In this document: piece after piece, positions 1,869 through 10,171 of the stretch
Layout: every line of letters begins with the position of its first letter
Numbering within the stretch: position 1 is the first letter of the stretch
Source of the DNA: a virus
Taxonomy: Duplodnaviria > Heunggongvirae > Uroviricota > Caudoviricetes
DNA: 64,000 nt
Virus record (IMG/VR): IMGVR_UViG_2823670853_000002
Reading direction: 5' to 3' (one strand)
Translations under genes and position numbers: made by a program
Notes under the pieces: generated by a model
What the model saw: the letters and a program-made list of their open reading frames with translations, nothing else
The model's database searches: none
Told to the model about the DNA's origin: nothing

Positions 1869-2308
1869 TTGGCTGGGGTGTATGCGCTCTTGCGTTAGCC
1901 TTAGCCGATCGCTATTTGCTAAAACGCAAGGACATCACGCATTTAGAACTTGGTGATGTGGAAATTAAACCGGGTTTCATCCGGGTGCCGTTCAAATACC
2001 GGTCTAAATTCCCGTTTTTGCGCGGCGCAACGGTCAGATATTGGATCCGCGATGTTCAGAAACCGACGACAGTGATTGAAGGCGAACAACGTTGTTTGAC
2101 GTCGGCTGAACAGGGCGAAAACAGTGAATGGTTGTACATACCCACTGAATATATGGGTAAAGGAGAGCGACTGTGGCATTTCAACGTCATGGTTACGCAT
2201 GGCGACTCGTTCATTAACCCGTTGTATCGGATTTTCCCTGTTACTCAGCAAATCCGCAGAAGTTACGTAATAAATCTCGCACAGGATGTGTCAGATGACG
2301 AAAAATAA
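1865..2308 (+). CDS. lydB: antiholin LydB
   Basis: 147-aa ORF with ATGA overlap to the lydA stop; synteny with the P1 darA operon. Confidence 0.55.
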   Translation: MIGWGVCALALALADRYLLKRKDITHLELGDVEIKPGFIRVPFKYRSKFPFLRGATVRYWIRDVQKPTTVIEGEQRCLTSAEQGENSEWLYIPTEYMGKGERLWHFNVMVTHGDSFINPLYRIFPVTQQIRRSYVINLAQDVSDDEK

Positions 2309-2897
2309 GTATGCAACGGTCGATTTTGACCAGGTTAATGAAAAGGGGCTGAAATCCCTTATCGCGGCGATCAATAAAACCGGTGTTACGGTAATTGAGG
2401 TTGACTCCAGCAACCGCGCAACAACGAAAGATGGCGTTAAAGTTAAAACCGCAAAGCTGGTTCTTAACGACGGACAAATTCTTGCCATACAGGTAAACGA
2501 TACTGGCGATATATCGTCTGTGAGGCTGAATGGAAAAGCTATTCCTAACGCTCAGTCGCCGGATATCAAGACGCTTGGTACCGTCATGGGGCAAGCGGCC
2601 CGCAAAAACTCCGCAAAATTCCAGAAATCACTGATCGCCAAAGCGAAACGTGTTGCCAATCCGGTAGACAAGAAACCGGCAGTAAAATCCAACTTTCAGC
2701 GCCTGCAAGAGGCAAAACAGCGGAATGCTCAGGTGGTTGCCGCTTATAAATCAGCGCAGAACTCGGTGTCTTTCAATCAACAGCAGATCACTGATTTGCG
2801 GGCGAAGCTGGATAAGGAGACAGGCCGACTCAATAACGAAAAGGCCCGAAATGGCGAACTCAAACGCCGTCTTAAGCAACTGAAAGCAGGAAATTAA
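2295..2897 (+). CDS. hdf: Hdf (DarA-related head protein)
   Basis: About 200-aa ORF directly upstream of darA with a coiled-coil C-terminus; internal ATG with AGGA RBS preferred over the track start at 2286; synteny. Confidence 0.5.
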   Translation: MTKNKYATVDFDQVNEKGLKSLIAAINKTGVTVIEVDSSNRATTKDGVKVKTAKLVLNDGQILAIQVNDTGDISSVRLNGKAIPNAQSPDIKTLGTVMGQAARKNSAKFQKSLIAKAKRVANPVDKKPAVKSNFQRLQEAKQRNAQVVAAYKSAQNSVSFNQQQITDLRAKLDKETGRLNNEKARNGELKRRLKQLKAGN

Positions 2898-2898
2898 C

Positions 2899-4818
2899 AT
2901 GGAACAGTTCAATATCAATAAAGGGGTGACGATCAAGCCTGGGCTTGACGTGCTTCCCCCGCCAGTGACTGATGATGAATATCGCGCATTAATGGCCGGT
3001 GAGGACCGCTATCTGATGACGGAATCCAACACCCTGGAGGAAATCGAGGCTACGTTCTTCTATGACACGCCGATCCACTGGTGTGCTACGGATTTACTGG
3101 AGGCGATTAGTTCTACTCGTTTGCAGTTACACCGGGCCATGCAGGCATTTGTCCGGGCATTGAACCAGAAGCTGAATGGTACCGGAATCTCTGCGGGGAG
3201 TGATAAAACGGGGGATGTGGCCCAGAGCGGCGCGCGCGCGATCGGCGGCGCTGAAATTGGCCGGGCACGTAACGTTAACGGGCTGCCGGTCTTGCCAGCC
3301 ATTATTCCGCTCAGTGATGGTCAGACTATCAGCATTCTGTTTCATAGCCCGACAGCGGAAAACCGGATCACCAATAGCGATACGCTGGTTGCTTTCCAGT
3401 TCTTACTGAATAAAAAAGACGTTACTCACACCGTTGCTCCGATGAGTGGACGTGATATGACGCTGGCGCAGGTCACCATGAAACTTGCCAACCTTGCAGA
3501 GAAAAACTCGGCAAAATTCCAGCGTGCGCAGAAGAAGAAAAAAGCCCTTGTTGATGAAATAACCCAACTACAGGCTGACAGTGACCAGAAAGAGGATGCC
3601 ATGAGCGACCTCGCGGATCAGGTGGCAGCGGTAGAAGGGCAGAAGGCAGATCTGGAGCAGAAAATTAACGCTGTTGCATCGGAAGCGGATTCTCTTTATG
3701 AAGAGAATGAGCGTTTGCAGACGGAGATTGATCAGCTCAATCGCACTGGTGGGCGCGATACCATTGCTCCAGCGGGGATGACTGGTGGGCACTCTCGCGC
3801 GCTGACGGATCGCCTTGCCAGTATCAAAAATCGTATGCATATGGACGGGGAAGTGACGCTCAGTAATGGTGCATCAATGAAGCAATTCATTGGGGGCGGC
3901 GAAGGGTATATCCAGTTAACCGATCCGGATGGCAGCGTATACATGATCAAGGCTAAATCCATACAGGGTGTGGACATGGCAGATGCGATCGGCAAGCTGT
4001 TTAAAGCCTATAAAGCGGGTAATGTATCGGAATACCTGGTCCAACCAGAAGAACATAAACCGGAAAACGTCGAACCTGAACCAGCGGAGGATACCGGTAG
4101 CTCTTCGCCTGAACCAGAAGTCTCTGTAGGTGCATATCGATATGCCCTGCAAATGCGTCCGGCGGCCCCTGGCGCAATACCTGAAGGTAACAAAGCAATT
4201 CTGCCGCGCCCTGATGAAGGTGACCCGTATTATGAATATGCACGCTACGGCATTGCTACTTACGATACCCCGCTTTCTGATCAGCAAATGAGTGAGTACG
4301 ACCTGAAGTTATTGCCTCGCGAGGATTCTTTCGACTTCCTGGCGAAGACACTTACTAATGGTCCGTTTGGCAAATATTCACAAAAAGCTCTGGAGCTGGC
4401 CACCAGCTCACCAGACGAGTTCCGCGTAATGCTGAAAACTCAGTTTCAAAAAACTTTCCCCAATATTGCGTTTCCTGGGGGCGCTGGCACCGAGAAAATG
4501 GTGCAGAGCATGATCAATGCATTGCAGGCCGAAGTCGGTGAGATTCCTCAGCCAGAACCGGCCCCGGCACAGCCTGATGAAACGGTTAGCGAAGCAGATG
4601 CAGAGGCTAATAAAGCCATTGAATATCTCAATAACGTGATGGATATACAAAGCACTGACATGGCGGAGATCCGTAACGCCCGGGGCAATGTCCGGGAAGC
4701 GATTGCAGCCCTTCAGGCTGCCGGACGTTTTGAGGAAAACGAAGAGCTGGTTAACGGCGCAGCTCGCCACCTGGCTGATCTGTTGGTAGCAATCCAGAAA
4801 GCGGGGGTAGCGGCATGA
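2899..4818 (+). CDS. darA: DarA antirestriction internal head protein
   Basis: 639-aa ORF, the size reported for P1 DarA, in the expected operon position. Confidence 0.75.
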   Translation: MEQFNINKGVTIKPGLDVLPPPVTDDEYRALMAGEDRYLMTESNTLEEIEATFFYDTPIHWCATDLLEAISSTRLQLHRAMQAFVRALNQKLNGTGISAGSDKTGDVAQSGARAIGGAEIGRARNVNGLPVLPAIIPLSDGQTISILFHSPTAENRITNSDTLVAFQFLLNKKDVTHTVAPMSGRDMTLAQVTMKLANLAEKNSAKFQRAQKKKKALVDEITQLQADSDQKEDAMSDLADQVAAVEGQKADLEQKINAVASEADSLYEENERLQTEIDQLNRTGGRDTIAPAGMTGGHSRALTDRLASIKNRMHMDGEVTLSNGASMKQFIGGGEGYIQLTDPDGSVYMIKAKSIQGVDMADAIGKLFKAYKAGNVSEYLVQPEEHKPENVEPEPAEDTGSSSPEPEVSVGAYRYALQMRPAAPGAIPEGNKAILPRPDEGDPYYEYARYGIATYDTPLSDQQMSEYDLKLLPREDSFDFLAKTLTNGPFGKYSQKALELATSSPDEFRVMLKTQFQKTFPNIAFPGGAGTEKMVQSMINALQAEVGEIPQPEPAPAQPDETVSEADAEANKAIEYLNNVMDIQSTDMAEIRNARGNVREAIAALQAAGRFEENEELVNGAARHLADLLVAIQKAGVAA

Positions 4819-5180
4819 CACTATCAGCTATTGAGTTAATGGATCTCAGCGATAAGTTGGATGCTCTGATGTCCAAAGCGGCTACCGCGAGTGGCATGGA
4901 GTTGCTGGATATCAGCGATGAAATTGACCAGATCATGCAACAGATGGGGTACGGCGCGTCCGGCGGTGGTAGTGGCGAGGAAAAACAACCTTCGGAACAT
5001 GATGGTGTGCCAAAACTGGTTGCTGATTTCCTGGCTGATAAATTCGTCGATCAGAGCACCGATGCATTTATCGGTACCTTGCAGGATTTGAGTCAATATG
5101 TTGGCACATACATCGACCTGGACCAGGTTAAACAGCACACTGCGGCATGGATAGCCGCCAACATTAAAGAGGCAGCATAA
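4815..5180 (+). CDS. ddrA: DdrA
   Basis: 121-aa ORF overlapping the darA stop; synteny with the P1 darA operon. Confidence 0.55.
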   Translation: MTLSAIELMDLSDKLDALMSKAATASGMELLDISDEIDQIMQQMGYGASGGGSGEEKQPSEHDGVPKLVADFLADKFVDQSTDAFIGTLQDLSQYVGTYIDLDQVKQHTAAWIAANIKEAA

Positions 5181-5192
5181 GGCGTAACAGGG

Positions 5193-8180
5193 ATGAGCTT
5201 AAGCGATCAGGTGGTAATGGCCACCAGCATAGAAACGCTGATCGAGCTGCTAAAGAACCTGCCCGATTATGGGCGGGTTTCGTATGTGGTGACAGCGAAG
5301 GGAGACGAGGTAAAAACAGCGTTTGATATCGTCGATGCCTCAGCTCTTTTGGTATCCAATACTCTGGATGGGAAAATTAATCCTGACTATCCCCAGGAAC
5401 TTCAGCCGCGCGACCGGACCCGCGCATCCAGCCTTCTTCAGGTTAACCAGATATCCAAAGATTTGCGGCCAGCTCAGCTTACTGATTCCGGTTTATCCAG
5501 CCATGGTGCGCCAATAATTGGTGAGGACAATGCCGTTGAGTCAGGTAATGGGCGGACCATGGGGATCATTAAAGCCTATCAGGACGGTAATGCGGATCGG
5601 TATCGGGAGTACCTGATTGAACATGCGACCGAATTCGGCATACGGCCTGAAAAGGTTGAATCAATGACGGCTCCGGTACTGGTGCGCCGCCGGTTAACGA
5701 AGGTTGACCGTGTTCAGTTTGCCAAGGACTCAAATATTTCTGATCTCCAGGAAATGGCAGCCAGTGAAAAGGCTTTTGTTGATGCCGACAGCATAACACC
5801 GGCGATGATGGCGTTGTTTAACCCGTCAGAAAGTGGAGATCTGCTTAGCCGCAGTAATGACGCGTTTATTCGCGGATTTATGACGCAAGTTGGTGCCACA
5901 CAGGCGGCTGGCCTTGTAACTGAAGATGGGCGACCAACACGGCAACTTGTAGACCGTATACAAAACGCGATCTTTGCCAAGGCATATAAGGATGCGCGCC
6001 TGGTAAGGATGGTTGCAGAAGAACCTGATCCGGATATGCGTAATGTTCTGACGGCGCTTAATGCGGCAGCCAATGATTTTGTCCAGATGCAGGCTTTATC
6101 AGGAGAAGCGCACAAGCAGGCTGTGACAACTATTGTTGATGGCATTGAGACAGCGGATAGCCTCGATAAAAAGGCGCTGGCGGCATTGAAAGATGCGGTA
6201 GACCTGGTAAGGCAATCGAAGGAGTCAGGCCAGCATATTACCGATGTTATTGCTCAGGGGGATATGTTCAGCGAAACGGCCCCGGAAGTGAAAGCACTCG
6301 CGTTGTTCATCGTCGCGAATAACCGTAGCGCGAAGCGTATGGCCACCGCCTTTAAGTTGATGGCTCAACGTATCAATGATGAGTTACAGCACCAGGGCCA
6401 GGCGCTGGGGGATATGTTTGGCGGCGGCGATGTGTCGTTACAGGATATCCTTCGCCAGGTGTCTCAGGAACTGGAAAACGAAGGCATGCAAGGGATATCC
6501 GGCGGTCTTTTCGAGTCCGTTTCCGGCGGTAGTTACAACGGTGTTGCTCCGTATACCAGTTTGCTATTACATCGGGCATCCGGCATCAAAGACATTATTC
6601 ATCTGATCAGGCTGCTTTCCCGCACAGATCCCCAGGATGAACAGCTTGTACAAGTGCTTGCGCATTTTGTTCGAATGCCTGTTGCCGACGTGAAAAAATG
6701 GTGCCGATTATTCGGTATCAGCAATTCGTTACTTCGCGGCTTGTTAAATCACGCATCCTCCCTTGGGCGCGATGGCTTTGACGAGATAGCGCAGGCGATA
6801 AAAAACGGAGATATGCCACCAGCTATTGACTGGTTTTCCATTCGCCCAACCAGGGTGAAAGCATTCCTTAGCGCGGCGCATTCGGCATCACCATTGGCAG
6901 AAATGGTTCAGAGGTTGTCGCTCATATTCACAGACCATACCGCGTTGGTTGATCTGACTCTGGACGAGATGAAAGAAGCCTCCATTCAGTGGGCCGATCG
7001 ACAAAATGAGGTTAACTCAGACTTCTTGCCAGCATTCAGGAAGGCCGTTAGTAAAGCGGATGATGCCCGTGGAATTCTGAAGGCATTTAAGGCATTGCAA
7101 AGTCGTGTTAATAAACATGTCGGTGATATCGATGGGGTAACGGCGGAAGGCCGGGATATTCTTAAAGAGCACGGCATAACGCCAGAGTTTATTGATGAGA
7201 TCAGGACTGATATGCAGCGTGAGGTCGTATCGTCCCTGCAAATCGTAGCCAGAGCGTTGGCGGATGCTAATCCGAAGAGTGCGGCCATTGTTAACCGGGT
7301 TATTGGTGATATTGAAGCATCGGAGGGCATGGGGGCGCTGAAACTCTTCCTTTCGCGAGCGTTTAATCCTAACGGCAATATTCTCCCTGGCATTATTGGT
7401 GAGGCTAAAAAGTATGTCAGTGAAGAAGAGCTTGAGCAGCTTGACCAACTACTTAAGCGATTCTCATATAACCCGCAGATACGCTGGCAAATGAATCAGC
7501 GAAGTATGGGTTCGGTCCACGAGAAAGTGTTATCTGCCATGAACAGTGCGATCGCAAACTCATCCGTATCTGAAGAAAAAGCTCTTGAGTGGGCCGACTC
7601 TTTTATCACAGAAGAAGTGGAAGAAGTCCGCGCTGGACAGAATGGTGGGATAGACCTGCGCAAGGAACTTGCTGATATTTATCGCCTGACCGGCGGGAAA
7701 ATATCGACCTTATCAAAGGTAGTTCACCACCAGGGAAGGGCATATGCAAATCTTAATGGTGTTGTTGCTGTCAATTTGAACGATGAAAATGCAAGTGCAC
7801 TGTGGCACGAGCTGGGTCATCATCTTGAGTACAGTAACCCTGGTTTGTTAGAGAAAGCCCGGTCATTCCTGAAGTCCAATGTTGAAGGGGATAAGCCATC
7901 TTTCGTCAATATCGGTGGGCGTGGCAAGCCTGAATGGTGCTTCAGATCTCGATTGAGTAATATTTATATGGCGAAGGTATACCCGCCAGCCTCAGTAAGT
8001 AACACCGGGAAAATTCGGCAGAAATCACCGACTATTTCCAAAACGTCAGCAACGGAAGTATTCTCTATGGCTCTTCAGTTGTATCATGACAAAGAGGCCG
8101 CTGCCGCATCACTGATGAATGGTGACGGATTGCTGGAACTGTTATTAGGTGTGGCAAAGGAGCTAAATAATGCAGATTAA
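5193..8180 (+). CDS. ddrB: DdrB, large Dar-operon protein with HExxH motif
   Basis: 995-aa ORF; contains LWHELGHHLEY (zincin-like HExxH); synteny with P1 ddrB. Confidence 0.6.
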   Translation: MSLSDQVVMATSIETLIELLKNLPDYGRVSYVVTAKGDEVKTAFDIVDASALLVSNTLDGKINPDYPQELQPRDRTRASSLLQVNQISKDLRPAQLTDSGLSSHGAPIIGEDNAVESGNGRTMGIIKAYQDGNADRYREYLIEHATEFGIRPEKVESMTAPVLVRRRLTKVDRVQFAKDSNISDLQEMAASEKAFVDADSITPAMMALFNPSESGDLLSRSNDAFIRGFMTQVGATQAAGLVTEDGRPTRQLVDRIQNAIFAKAYKDARLVRMVAEEPDPDMRNVLTALNAAANDFVQMQALSGEAHKQAVTTIVDGIETADSLDKKALAALKDAVDLVRQSKESGQHITDVIAQGDMFSETAPEVKALALFIVANNRSAKRMATAFKLMAQRINDELQHQGQALGDMFGGGDVSLQDILRQVSQELENEGMQGISGGLFESVSGGSYNGVAPYTSLLLHRASGIKDIIHLIRLLSRTDPQDEQLVQVLAHFVRMPVADVKKWCRLFGISNSLLRGLLNHASSLGRDGFDEIAQAIKNGDMPPAIDWFSIRPTRVKAFLSAAHSASPLAEMVQRLSLIFTDHTALVDLTLDEMKEASIQWADRQNEVNSDFLPAFRKAVSKADDARGILKAFKALQSRVNKHVGDIDGVTAEGRDILKEHGITPEFIDEIRTDMQREVVSSLQIVARALADANPKSAAIVNRVIGDIEASEGMGALKLFLSRAFNPNGNILPGIIGEAKKYVSEEELEQLDQLLKRFSYNPQIRWQMNQRSMGSVHEKVLSAMNSAIANSSVSEEKALEWADSFITEEVEEVRAGQNGGIDLRKELADIYRLTGGKISTLSKVVHHQGRAYANLNGVVAVNLNDENASALWHELGHHLEYSNPGLLEKARSFLKSNVEGDKPSFVNIGGRGKPEWCFRSRLSNIYMAKVYPPASVSNTGKIRQKSPTISKTSATEVFSMALQLYHDKEAAAASLMNGDGLLELLLGVAKELNNAD

Positions 8181-8478
8181 AATCGCAGCGCCATTAGGTG
8201 GAGATGCCATTATCGAATTTGATGATAATGAAGAAGTTTCCGGGCGTTTAAGCATTATCTCCGGTGACATTACCGAGGACATGATCGCTGAAGCCATAGC
8301 TGGGGCAAATCCCAATAGCTATATGGGATTCGTTAACACCCTTGATGCTCCCGCAAGTGATGTTCTCCGAACGCTGCATCTTTACGCTGGCTGGTTTGTT
8401 GATTGGCCAGCAGTAGATGGTGGCGATGAGGACGACGACGATGATTTTGGTGATCATGTAGACCAGATCGTATATTGA
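8170..8478 (+). CDS. hypothetical acidic protein (last gene of darA operon)
   Basis: 102-aa ORF overlapping the ddrB end, Asp/Glu-rich C-terminus, followed by a terminator. Confidence 0.4.
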   Translation: MQIKIAAPLGGDAIIEFDDNEEVSGRLSIISGDITEDMIAEAIAGANPNSYMGFVNTLDAPASDVLRTLHLYAGWFVDWPAVDGGDEDDDDDFGDHVDQIVY

Positions 8479-8481
8479 AGA

Positions 8482-8510
8482 AATCCCGCCACTCGGCGGG
8501 ATTTTTTTTA
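8482..8510 (+). terminator. rho-independent terminator of the darA operon
   Basis: AATCCCGCC-ACTC-GGCGGGATT hairpin followed by a T8 run. Confidence 0.65.
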
Positions 8511-9290
8511 ATCGCTTTCCACTTCTTCCGTGGTGTTTTCTTGCAGTTCTGTTAATGCAGCACGACATAGGTTCCGGGCATTGGCTATAGCCACACTTTT
8601 GACTTCATCCGTCATCGTGCAGGTAATGTACTGATCGAGTTCTTCAGCGCGGATGATGCTTTTGCCAATCAGAAACTGTATTTGCCAGAGCAGATCGGCA
8701 TCCATAATCAGAATTTCTGCCGGGCCTTCAGGGCCAGCCGGGAAGGAAACATAAGACTGTTTGCCCAGGCCGACAACTCGACAACTTGCTTCAAGAATTG
8801 CGCGCTTGAGGTCTGACTTTATAACGGAAACAGGTTGATTTTCACCAGTGATTACGCCGTTGACATGGAAAGGCATGTAGCTTGAAATACGCTCCACTTT
8901 CCACACGCCAGCAAGCGATCCTTCATGCAGCACAATGGGGGTAACCGCGAGTTTCATCTCACCATATAGCTGCTGGCAGATAGCTGGATTGCTGAATACA
9001 TCTAAAGGCTCACATTCAAACAGCGGCGCAATCTGCATGAGGTCCATCATGGTCATCCCTGGGGTACGAGCAGTAATGAATCTGCGCATACCAGTATCCA
9101 TTGCGCTCCAGATTGCTACACCATGCTTTTTGCTCACTTCTTCAGTAAAGCCAAGGTGGCACATGATGGTTTTTTCGATAGCCAGATCAGAGATCGAAAC
9201 CTTTTCGCCAGGCACACCATCATTATTGATGGTCACTTCGACACTCTGACCATTACGCAGGCGGTATTGAATTGCTTTAGTATTTTCCAC
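8508..9290 (-). CDS. hypothetical protein (third gene of ssb operon)
   Basis: 260-aa ORF with acidic C-terminal tail; GTG start with GGAG RBS; unknown function. Confidence 0.5.
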   Translation of the reverse strand: MENTKAIQYRLRNGQSVEVTINNDGVPGEKVSISDLAIEKTIMCHLGFTEEVSKKHGVAIWSAMDTGMRRFITARTPGMTMMDLMQIAPLFECEPLDVFSNPAICQQLYGEMKLAVTPIVLHEGSLAGVWKVERISSYMPFHVNGVITGENQPVSVIKSDLKRAILEASCRVVGLGKQSYVSFPAGPEGPAEILIMDADLLWQIQFLIGKSIIRAEELDQYITCTMTDEVKSVAIANARNLCRAALTELQENTTEEVESD

Positions 9291-9296
9291 GTTAAA

Positions 9297-9974
9297 TCAC
9301 TCCACTACAAACCAGTCACATGCCAGTAAGTCGCCTACAGAAGGAACCCACGGAACAACTACACCTTGTGCATTTTTTAAGGCGAAATAAGCACCATACG
9401 GAACGAGGTCGCCGGGGAAATATCCCTTAATGGCTTCCATTCGTGCCGGGTACTGTCCTTCAGGAACCAGCCAGCAGAATTGGTTTTCGCCGTTCCACCC
9501 GCGTCGAGCAACTTTCTTGCCATCCTTCAGCCACATCAGCGCGTCAGAAAAGTCGGCTGCTTCAAGGTCGATTTCTTCTTGTGTGGTAATGATGCCACTG
9601 GCAGCAATAGTTACGTCCCTGGCTGTAATGAATGTCACCCCATTGTGACCTTCAATACTGAGCGATACCCCATTTTCGAAGAAGTCGTTAGTCCGACTAA
9701 AGCCTTCTTCAAATGTTTTTTCTGGTGAATAGGACAGAGATCCGTCCTCATAAGCGACCAGATATCCGCCAATTTCTGGTCGGTGTTTTTGCAAAAACAT
9801 TTTATCAACATGGACTTTTACCCCTTCTGGCTCAACGACTTCGATGTTGCAAAAAAGGACCACATCCATTAGGGCGATAATTTCGATATCTTTGATTTTT
9901 GAGGCGCGAACTGTTTTATGGCTTTTGTATTTTGGAAGTGCCGTCAAAAGCTCTTTCGTTGTCATGTTATTCAT
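9297..9974 (-). CDS. DUF2829 (Tad2-like) domain protein
   Basis: C-terminal 85 aa (FSDALMWLKDGKKVARRGWNGEN...VVVPWVPSVGDLLACDWFVVE) matches the DUF2829 signature; start at MNNMTTK with GAGGAAAG RBS (track ORF extends to 10142 from a GTG). Confidence 0.55.
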   Translation of the reverse strand: MNNMTTKELLTALPKYKSHKTVRASKIKDIEIIALMDVVLFCNIEVVEPEGVKVHVDKMFLQKHRPEIGGYLVAYEDGSLSYSPEKTFEEGFSRTNDFFENGVSLSIEGHNGVTFITARDVTIAASGIITTQEEIDLEAADFSDALMWLKDGKKVARRGWNGENQFCWLVPEGQYPARMEAIKGYFPGDLVPYGAYFALKNAQGVVVPWVPSVGDLLACDWFVVE

Positions 9975-10171
9975 AGTCTTTCCTCTGCTTAAAACCTGAT
10001 GTATTGCGCCTTCAGGTGGGTCAGGAATGTTTTCCCACCAGCGAAAGCAATATCTCGGGGTGTTCTTTTCGTGAAAAGCGCGTGCCATTGCCAACTTTGG
10101 CGTTTGTTTGCGAGTTCGTGCTTTTGTCGGCGTCTGGACCACCGCTTTTCTTTCAGTCGTTTTTTACACAT

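Follow-up and report, generated by a model that had tools for sequence, protein, structure and literature searches.

DdrB of a P1-like phage ends in a predicted zincin-like metallopeptidase domain of the gluzincin type

Domain organization of DdrB

The window analyzed here is a stretch of 64,000 nucleotides from a Caudoviricetes virus (IMG/VR record IMGVR_UViG_2823670853_000002), and the subject is the protein encoded at positions 5193–8180 on its + strand. This gene is ddrB of the darA operon of a P1-like phage. The 3.7-kb stretch around it shares 98–99% DNA identity with 19 P1-like phage records, and P1 and the P1-like records with this identity annotate the locus as ddrB, between ddrA and hxr. 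The encoded protein differs from the reference P1 DdrB by 13 amino acid substitutions. Only two of these, Y791S and A895S, are in the C-terminal domain, and both are outside its conserved sites. As described below, this domain is predicted to be a zincin-like metallopeptidase (MPTase), and its probable role is the processing of DdrB itself. The regions of the gene are as follows.

5193–8180 (+): ddrB coding sequence, 995 residues plus stop, ATG start; assigned from the open reading frame (ORF) list and translation, DNA identity to P1 and a full-length match to phrog_2299.
5298–5693 (+): ddrB-ParB domain of the ParB/Srx superfamily, residues 36–167 (PF18763, E = 1.9e-39, 135 bits against a cutoff of 27.6).
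5694–6512 (+): conserved continuation of the N-terminal module up to residue ~440, with no assigned family; covered by phrog_5143 and phrog_14693.
6513–7502 (+): variable, indel-rich middle region, residues ~441–770, with 4–17% identity per block and many gaps.
7503–8177 (+): C-terminal zincin-like MPTase domain, residues ~771–995; delimited from 401 homologues, an AlphaFold2 model and Iyer et al. (2017; PMC5512222).

Identity along the protein was calculated in 20-residue blocks from an alignment of 10 full-length DdrB-like proteins. The block means of the N-terminal extension are 28–70% (mostly 37–63%). The two flanking modules (N-terminal residues 20–440 and the C-terminal protease-like domain) are conserved and the middle third is poorly so; the middle region may be a linker or a fast-evolving adaptor surface.

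The HExxH motif and its conservation

The original prediction pointed to the sequence LWHELGHHLEY near residue 870 of the 995-residue protein, and the translation confirms it, with HELGH at residues 872–876 (7806–7820). The motif occurs once in DdrB, where 0.026 occurrences are expected by chance from the composition of the protein, and it is the sole HExxH in the window when all 68 stop-free stretches with a length of 150 amino acids or more are considered (20,017 amino acids in total). A five-residue motif is by itself weak evidence, and its weight comes from its invariance in the aligned sequences of distant homologues. The metzincin signature (HExxHxxGxxH/D with a Met-turn) was considered and ruled out: in HELGH-HLE-YSN, the residue at +3 is E879 and that at +6 is N882.

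An exhaustive HMMER search with residues 751–995 as the query yielded 401 representative homologues (E <= 1e-3). A word-indexed homologue search had reached only close P1-like fragments, and the exhaustive search was needed for the distant relatives. Residues were counted in 149 aligned domains, typically 25–40% identical to DdrB, with the occupied columns as denominators. H872 and E873 are present in 146/146 and H876 in 146/148. The sites concerned are listed below; model residue n is DdrB residue n + 769.

7737–7739 (+): codon of R849, a near-invariant arginine (144/146) in the sheet region that precedes the active-site helix.
7806–7820 (+): HELGH, with two predicted metal-binding histidines (H872 and H876) and the predicted catalytic base E873; assigned from position, conservation and model helix 99–112.
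7827–7829 (+): codon of E879 (HExxHxxE), near-invariant (146/148); model residue 110, in helix 99–112.
7932–7934 (+): codon of E914, near-invariant (144/146); model residue 145, which opens strand 145–150 of a beta-hairpin insert.
7965–7982 (+): Y925-x-x-K928-x-Y930 (consensus PYVGKxY), an invariant aromatic/basic cluster.
8055–8057 (+): codon of E955 in TEVFSMA, the candidate “glutamate helix” (146/147); model residue 186, just before helix 187–193.

Within the aromatic/basic cluster, Y925 is found in 147/147, Y930 in 145/147 and K928 in 133/147 domains, with arginine in a further 12. By analogy with the tyrosine of ArdC and other gluzincins, these three residues are candidate substrate or transition-state contacts. 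E879, on the active-site helix, probably belongs to the second shell or the pocket. In the cleaner alignment of 45 sequences (A1), H872, E873, H876, Y925 and E955 are all invariant. The few homologues that do not have HExxH are fragments or one deletion variant. Judged from the alignments, the pattern is that of a maintained active site.

The deletion variant (P0014, 699 residues) is a close P1-type DdrB in which about residue 590 is joined to about residue 878, and HExxH is lost. The deleted segment corresponds to ~6960–7826 of the window. This protein is probably the product of a defective copy of a dispensable gene.

Predicted fold and third metal ligand

AlphaFold2 run on alignment A1 gave a model of residues 770–995 with a mean predicted local distance difference test score (pLDDT) of 93.8 and a predicted template modelling score (pTM) of 0.90. 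The alignment was required for this result; a single-sequence run on residues 751–995 gave a pLDDT of 38 and no usable model. Secondary structure was assigned with DSSP. In model numbering, the domain starts with three N-terminal helices, followed by helix 53–63, which ends in the conserved YRLTGG. Strands 73–76 and 88–91 come next with a short bridge between them, and R849 is located here. Helix 99–112 carries HELGH (residues 103–107; block pLDDT 97–98) as well as E879. It is followed by helix 114–127 and the beta-hairpin insert 128–150, where the E914 segment begins. The C-terminal part consists of the PYVGKxY segment, helix 187–193 immediately after E955, and two closing helices.

A backing helix, a sheet of about three strands and an active-site helix are thus present in the model, with HExxH on the helix and its His/Glu/His residues conserved across the family. 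This agrees with Iyer et al. (2017; PMC5512222), who describe an MPTase core built from a sheet of three strands and an N-terminal helix, together with one helix that carries HExxH, another that carries the Glu, and variable inserts. As modelled, the order of elements is the zincin layout of the gluzincin type. The original prediction had named disorder of the motif region as grounds for giving it up; as far as disorder is concerned the opposite was found, HExxH being on a confident helix of an ordered domain.

The third zinc ligand, which the original prediction had proposed to look for, has an invariant candidate in E955, at the start of a helix in the model. E955 is most likely the third metal ligand of the predicted structure. 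It is preferred because it heads a helix and because its E-x-x-S sequence fits the gluzincin motif (E,H)xx(A,F,T,S,G) quoted in PMC7213743. E914 and E879 are as conserved as E955, and E914 is the alternative candidate for the third ligand.

The domain in other proteins

The domain is also found after an inorganic pyrophosphatase (InPase) domain and two DdrB-ParB domains, after MuF head-morphogenesis domains, and together with DnaJ and LRAT/NlpC-like domains. In P0036 (788 residues), an Hdf-like antirestriction domain (phrog_1620, residues 38–204) is fused to a C-terminal DdrB-type protease-like domain. Two functions with genes of their own in the P1 dar operon are joined in this one protein, a sign that they are functionally linked. 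Most partners of the protease-like domain are modules from proteins that go into the head and are delivered together with the DNA. The C-terminal domain of DdrB, a zincin-like domain within multidomain phage and conjugative proteins, belongs to the MPTase class of polyvalent proteins, the phage and plasmid proteins that are delivered with DNA.

Previous assignments of DdrB

The metallopeptidase idea is already known from reference annotation and from a 2017 paper. The RefSeq record of P1 describes ddrB as “unknown protein function; possible metallopeptidase” and the annotation of phage JL22 calls the gene product a “putative metallopeptidase”. Iyer, Burroughs, Anand, de Souza and Aravind (J Bacteriol 2017; PMC5512222) recognized a zincin-like MPTase at the C-terminus of P1 DdrB and proposed that autoproteolysis of DdrB before packaging gives the reported 76-kDa head protein, with post-injection processing and host-directed cleavage as alternatives. 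The original prediction stated that DdrB has no assigned biochemical activity; this holds for experiments and does not hold for predictions, as the two annotations and the 2017 paper show. The functions it suggested, that DdrB might process Dar proteins or host restriction components, likewise appear in Iyer et al. (2017). In later P1 papers, DdrB figures as a virion protein that aids the incorporation of DarB, and a protease is not addressed.

To this the present analysis adds a confident model, domain boundaries, residues for mutagenesis (H872, E873, H876, E955, E914, E879, R849, Y925, K928 and Y930) and cleavage by the P1 prohead protease Pro as an alternative. Its value is a sharper residue set for mutation and not a discovery.

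Proposed role of the domain

We consider it probable, with an appreciable margin of doubt, that residues ~771–995 of DdrB form a gluzincin-type metallopeptidase that serves as a processing protease on DdrB itself. In the proposed mechanism, H872 and H876 on the active-site helix and a downstream glutamate (E955, or else E914) would hold a divalent metal, and E873 would activate the hydrolytic water. The pocket would be lined by R849, E879, Y925, K928 and Y930. The cut would be made within the variable residues 441–770, and the resulting N-terminal product of ~75 kDa, which retains the ParB-like module, would go into the P1 head, where DdrB is required for the incorporation of DarB. The calculated mass of residues 1–690 is 75.3 kDa, and an N-terminal product of ~76 kDa means that the cut would fall in the variable region at 6513–7502.

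The original prediction of a zincin-like metallopeptidase is borne out as a prediction by the invariant HExxH in the alignments, the confident helix of the model and the downstream invariant E955, with the formal links to zincins remaining below threshold. These links and several other points weigh against the proposed role. The Pfam scan of DdrB recognized only the ParB domain and none for the C-terminal domain, for which NCBIfam also gave no match. A profile search of PDB sequences gave no significant match, proteases appearing only at E ~0.5 (a botulinum neurotoxin (BoNT)-like toxin and ADAM8). Foldseek against the PDB gave none at E <= 0.001, and the best zincin fold matches (IrrE/PprI 3dte, 3dti and 8sln, plus 6cz6) have E values of 3–9, the TM-scores of the IrrE-family matches being only 0.21–0.23. 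In favour of the proposal, a Pfam scan of the 45 members of A1 with a lax threshold gave matches mainly to zincin families, these being sub-threshold (Zincin_1 in 5/45; also Reprolysin_2/3/4/5, ATLF, M60, M91 and M10). Among predicted viral structures, Foldseek detected seven significant neighbours, each an uncharacterized or unnamed phage protein. A literature search found no published DdrB mutant, enzymatic assay or test of the motif. In ArdC, the best-studied analogue, mutation of the metal ligand (E229A) left the biological activity fully intact, and no substrate emerged (PMC7213743).

Further points of this kind concern the 76-kDa protein and Pro. The assignment of the 76-kDa protein is second-hand. 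In the darA-operon record of 1998 (AJ000741, 694–3680), ddrB is split into ORFVI (715 residues, 77.8 kDa) and ORFVII (283 residues), the latter being essentially the protease-like domain. The gene is continuous in the P1 genome and encodes 995 residues, so the split indicates a frameshift in the older sequence. The 77.8 kDa of ORFVI is close to the size of the “76-kDa” head protein and could have swayed that assignment. Pro is the enzyme that cleaves the capsid protein, after E120, and the trimming of DarA is attributed to it. DdrB has 19 (L/I/V)-x-E sites, including those at 659, 669, 737 and 744, and together with the activity of Pro these sites mean that the processing of DdrB could be the work of Pro. 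We looked in the window for the context of the capsid-protein cleavage, and gene 23 is not in the window.

Virion proteomics detected DdrB with 39 peptides and 59.5% coverage. An in-silico tryptic digest of residues 1–690 yields 39 peptides of 6–40 residues, equal to 59.0% of the protein. The N-terminal fragment alone could therefore account for such a figure, and the virion data do not show whether the C-terminal domain is packaged. The supplement of the proteomics study holds no peptide map of DdrB.

Among the alternatives, a chance HExxH in a non-enzymatic helical region hardly deserves belief. Such motifs are short and common in proteomes, and the domain has no significant match to a curated family or a solved structure; the low chance expectation for DdrB (0.026), the retention of the motif with further invariant residues in ~146 distant homologues, and its place on a helix predicted with confidence within a zincin-like layout all speak against coincidence, and the conservation data effectively refute it. 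It is doubtful, though it merits attention, that the zincin-like fold is kept mainly for a structural or packaging task (docking of DarA or Hdf, recruitment of DarB) while DdrB is processed by Pro. Such a task fits the cleavage of the capsid protein after E120 and the presumed trimming of DarA by Pro, the (L/I/V)-x-E sites at 659, 669, 737 and 744 in the variable region, the functional E229A mutant of ArdC (PMC7213743) and the virion RNA polymerase of phage N4, in which the MPTase-containing region is needed for encapsidation and yet the polymerase itself is packaged uncut (PMC5512222). The natural 699-residue variant P0014 without the HExxH segment also agrees with it, but it is one deletion variant in a group of close P1 relatives, and its gene may simply be dispensable and defective in this copy. 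In contrast, H872, E873, H876, E879, E914, Y925, Y930 and E955 are almost completely invariant in domains of otherwise ~25–40% identity, which is the expectation for a maintained active site and not for a docking surface.

An active metallopeptidase could instead be an effector after ejection, which cleaves host type I restriction or BREX components or activates co-ejected Dar proteins; the domain would be delivered with the DNA and possibly held there via the ParB-like module. We regard this as unlikely. The Dar proteins leave the capsid together with the DNA and give protection only in cis, DdrB is present in virions (the 39 peptides given above), and the pairing of a DNA- or NTP-binding module with a metalloprotease recalls ArdC, Spartan and IrrE (PMC7213743). 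Iyer et al. (PMC5512222) keep host-directed cleavage and post-injection processing as open alternatives. The published phenotype of DdrB, however, is summarized as an aid to the entry of DarB into the capsid, a role in assembly, and trimming of DdrB to an N-terminal product of ~76 kDa ahead of packaging would leave the protease domain behind when the DNA is delivered (PMC5512222). ArdC was not seen to cut a restriction enzyme and its metal-ligand mutant was fully functional (PMC7213743), and the virion peptide count fits residues 1–690 alone. A more specific version, in which DdrB is packaged with its protease intact and acts after ejection as a DNA-tethered, cis-acting protease, kept on the incoming genome by its ParB-like module and cutting host defence proteins that arrive at this DNA (such as translocating type I restriction or BREX complexes), seems very unlikely to us. 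If true, it would explain why Dar protects only the DNA with which it was packaged, and the “76-kDa processed form” would have to be seen as an old error of assignment linked to the frameshifted 715-residue ORFVI.

Of the six Dar proteins with which P1 protects incoming DNA, DdrB is the only one with a predicted protease. If the domain is active, this would bear on the maturation of DdrB, on the entry of the 251-kDa DarB into the head and on the possible delivery of a protease to the host. DdrB would then also be a test case for the commonest polyvalent-protein domain of phages and plasmids, none of which has a demonstrated substrate.

Genomic neighbourhood

The gene order of the late darA operon in the window is lydA, lydB, hdf, darA, ddrA, ddrB and hxr, and both the order and the sizes agree with the P1 reference. 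The run hdf-darA-ddrA-ddrB-hxr is syntenic with P1, and by this order, the DNA identity and the 13 differences given above DdrB is the orthologue of the P1 protein. The genes next to ddrB are as follows.

2286–2897 (+): hdf, a 203-residue ORF with size and order as in the P1 annotation.
2899–4818 (+): darA, a 639-residue ORF with size and order as in the P1 annotation.
4815–5180 (+): ddrA, a 121-residue ORF with size and order as in the P1 annotation.
8170–8478 (+): hxr, a 102-residue ORF that overlaps the 3′ end of ddrB; from the ORF list and the P1 annotation.

An antisense ORF of 143 residues is present within ddrB (5714–6145, −), roughly at the place of P1 iddB, which is annotated with unknown function. 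In the region 3′ of hxr (8480–10170), the arrangement with isaB and insertion sequence IS1 that characterizes reference P1 is absent. The whole of this region matches Salmonella phage SJ46 and vB_EcoM-Ro157c2YLVW (98.7–98.9%), and P1 covers only 58% of it. In several P1-like phage-plasmids (SJ46, RCS47 and vB_EcoM-813R1 were compared), the match to ~4800–8500 is interrupted by an insertion of ~1.3 kb. The insertion carries a transposase of the IS200/IS605 family (insQ), which the annotation places between DdrA and DdrB.

Comparison with known systems

Gluzincins of the thermolysin type have the motif HExxH followed by NExxSD. DdrB resembles them in having HExxH and then a glutamate at a helix start in T-E-V-x-S, which is similar to N-E-x-x-S-D. 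It differs in that the Asp of ExxxD is replaced by Met or Gly and in that its domain is much smaller, and neither the PDB profile search nor Foldseek detected a sequence or fold relationship between the two.

IrrE/PprI (COG2856, the ImmA/IrrE family) are small gluzincins that cleave a specific partner, and they provide the top zincin fold matches in the PDB. These matches are not significant, DdrB has no Pfam Peptidase_M78 match, and the context of IrrE/PprI is a repressor switch.

ArdC of plasmid R388 (PMC7213743) is similar to DdrB in its anti-restriction function and in its architecture, a nucleic-acid-binding N-terminal part and a C-terminal gluzincin with HExxH and a glutamate on the following helix. 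The nearest solved folds of ArdC are Spartan and IrrE (PMC7213743), and IrrE-family proteins are also the best, though weak, zincin fold matches of DdrB. The spacing from the second histidine to the ligand is 24 residues in ArdC versus 79 to the proposed ligand in DdrB, which has the hairpin insert. No significant sequence or fold match was obtained between the two proteins, and ArdC moves by conjugation and not in a capsid. A ligand mutant of ArdC had no phenotype (PMC7213743).

The MPTases of polyvalent proteins described by Iyer et al. (2017; PMC5512222) are the same object as the C-terminal domain of DdrB, and the alignment, the model and the domain architectures agree on this point.

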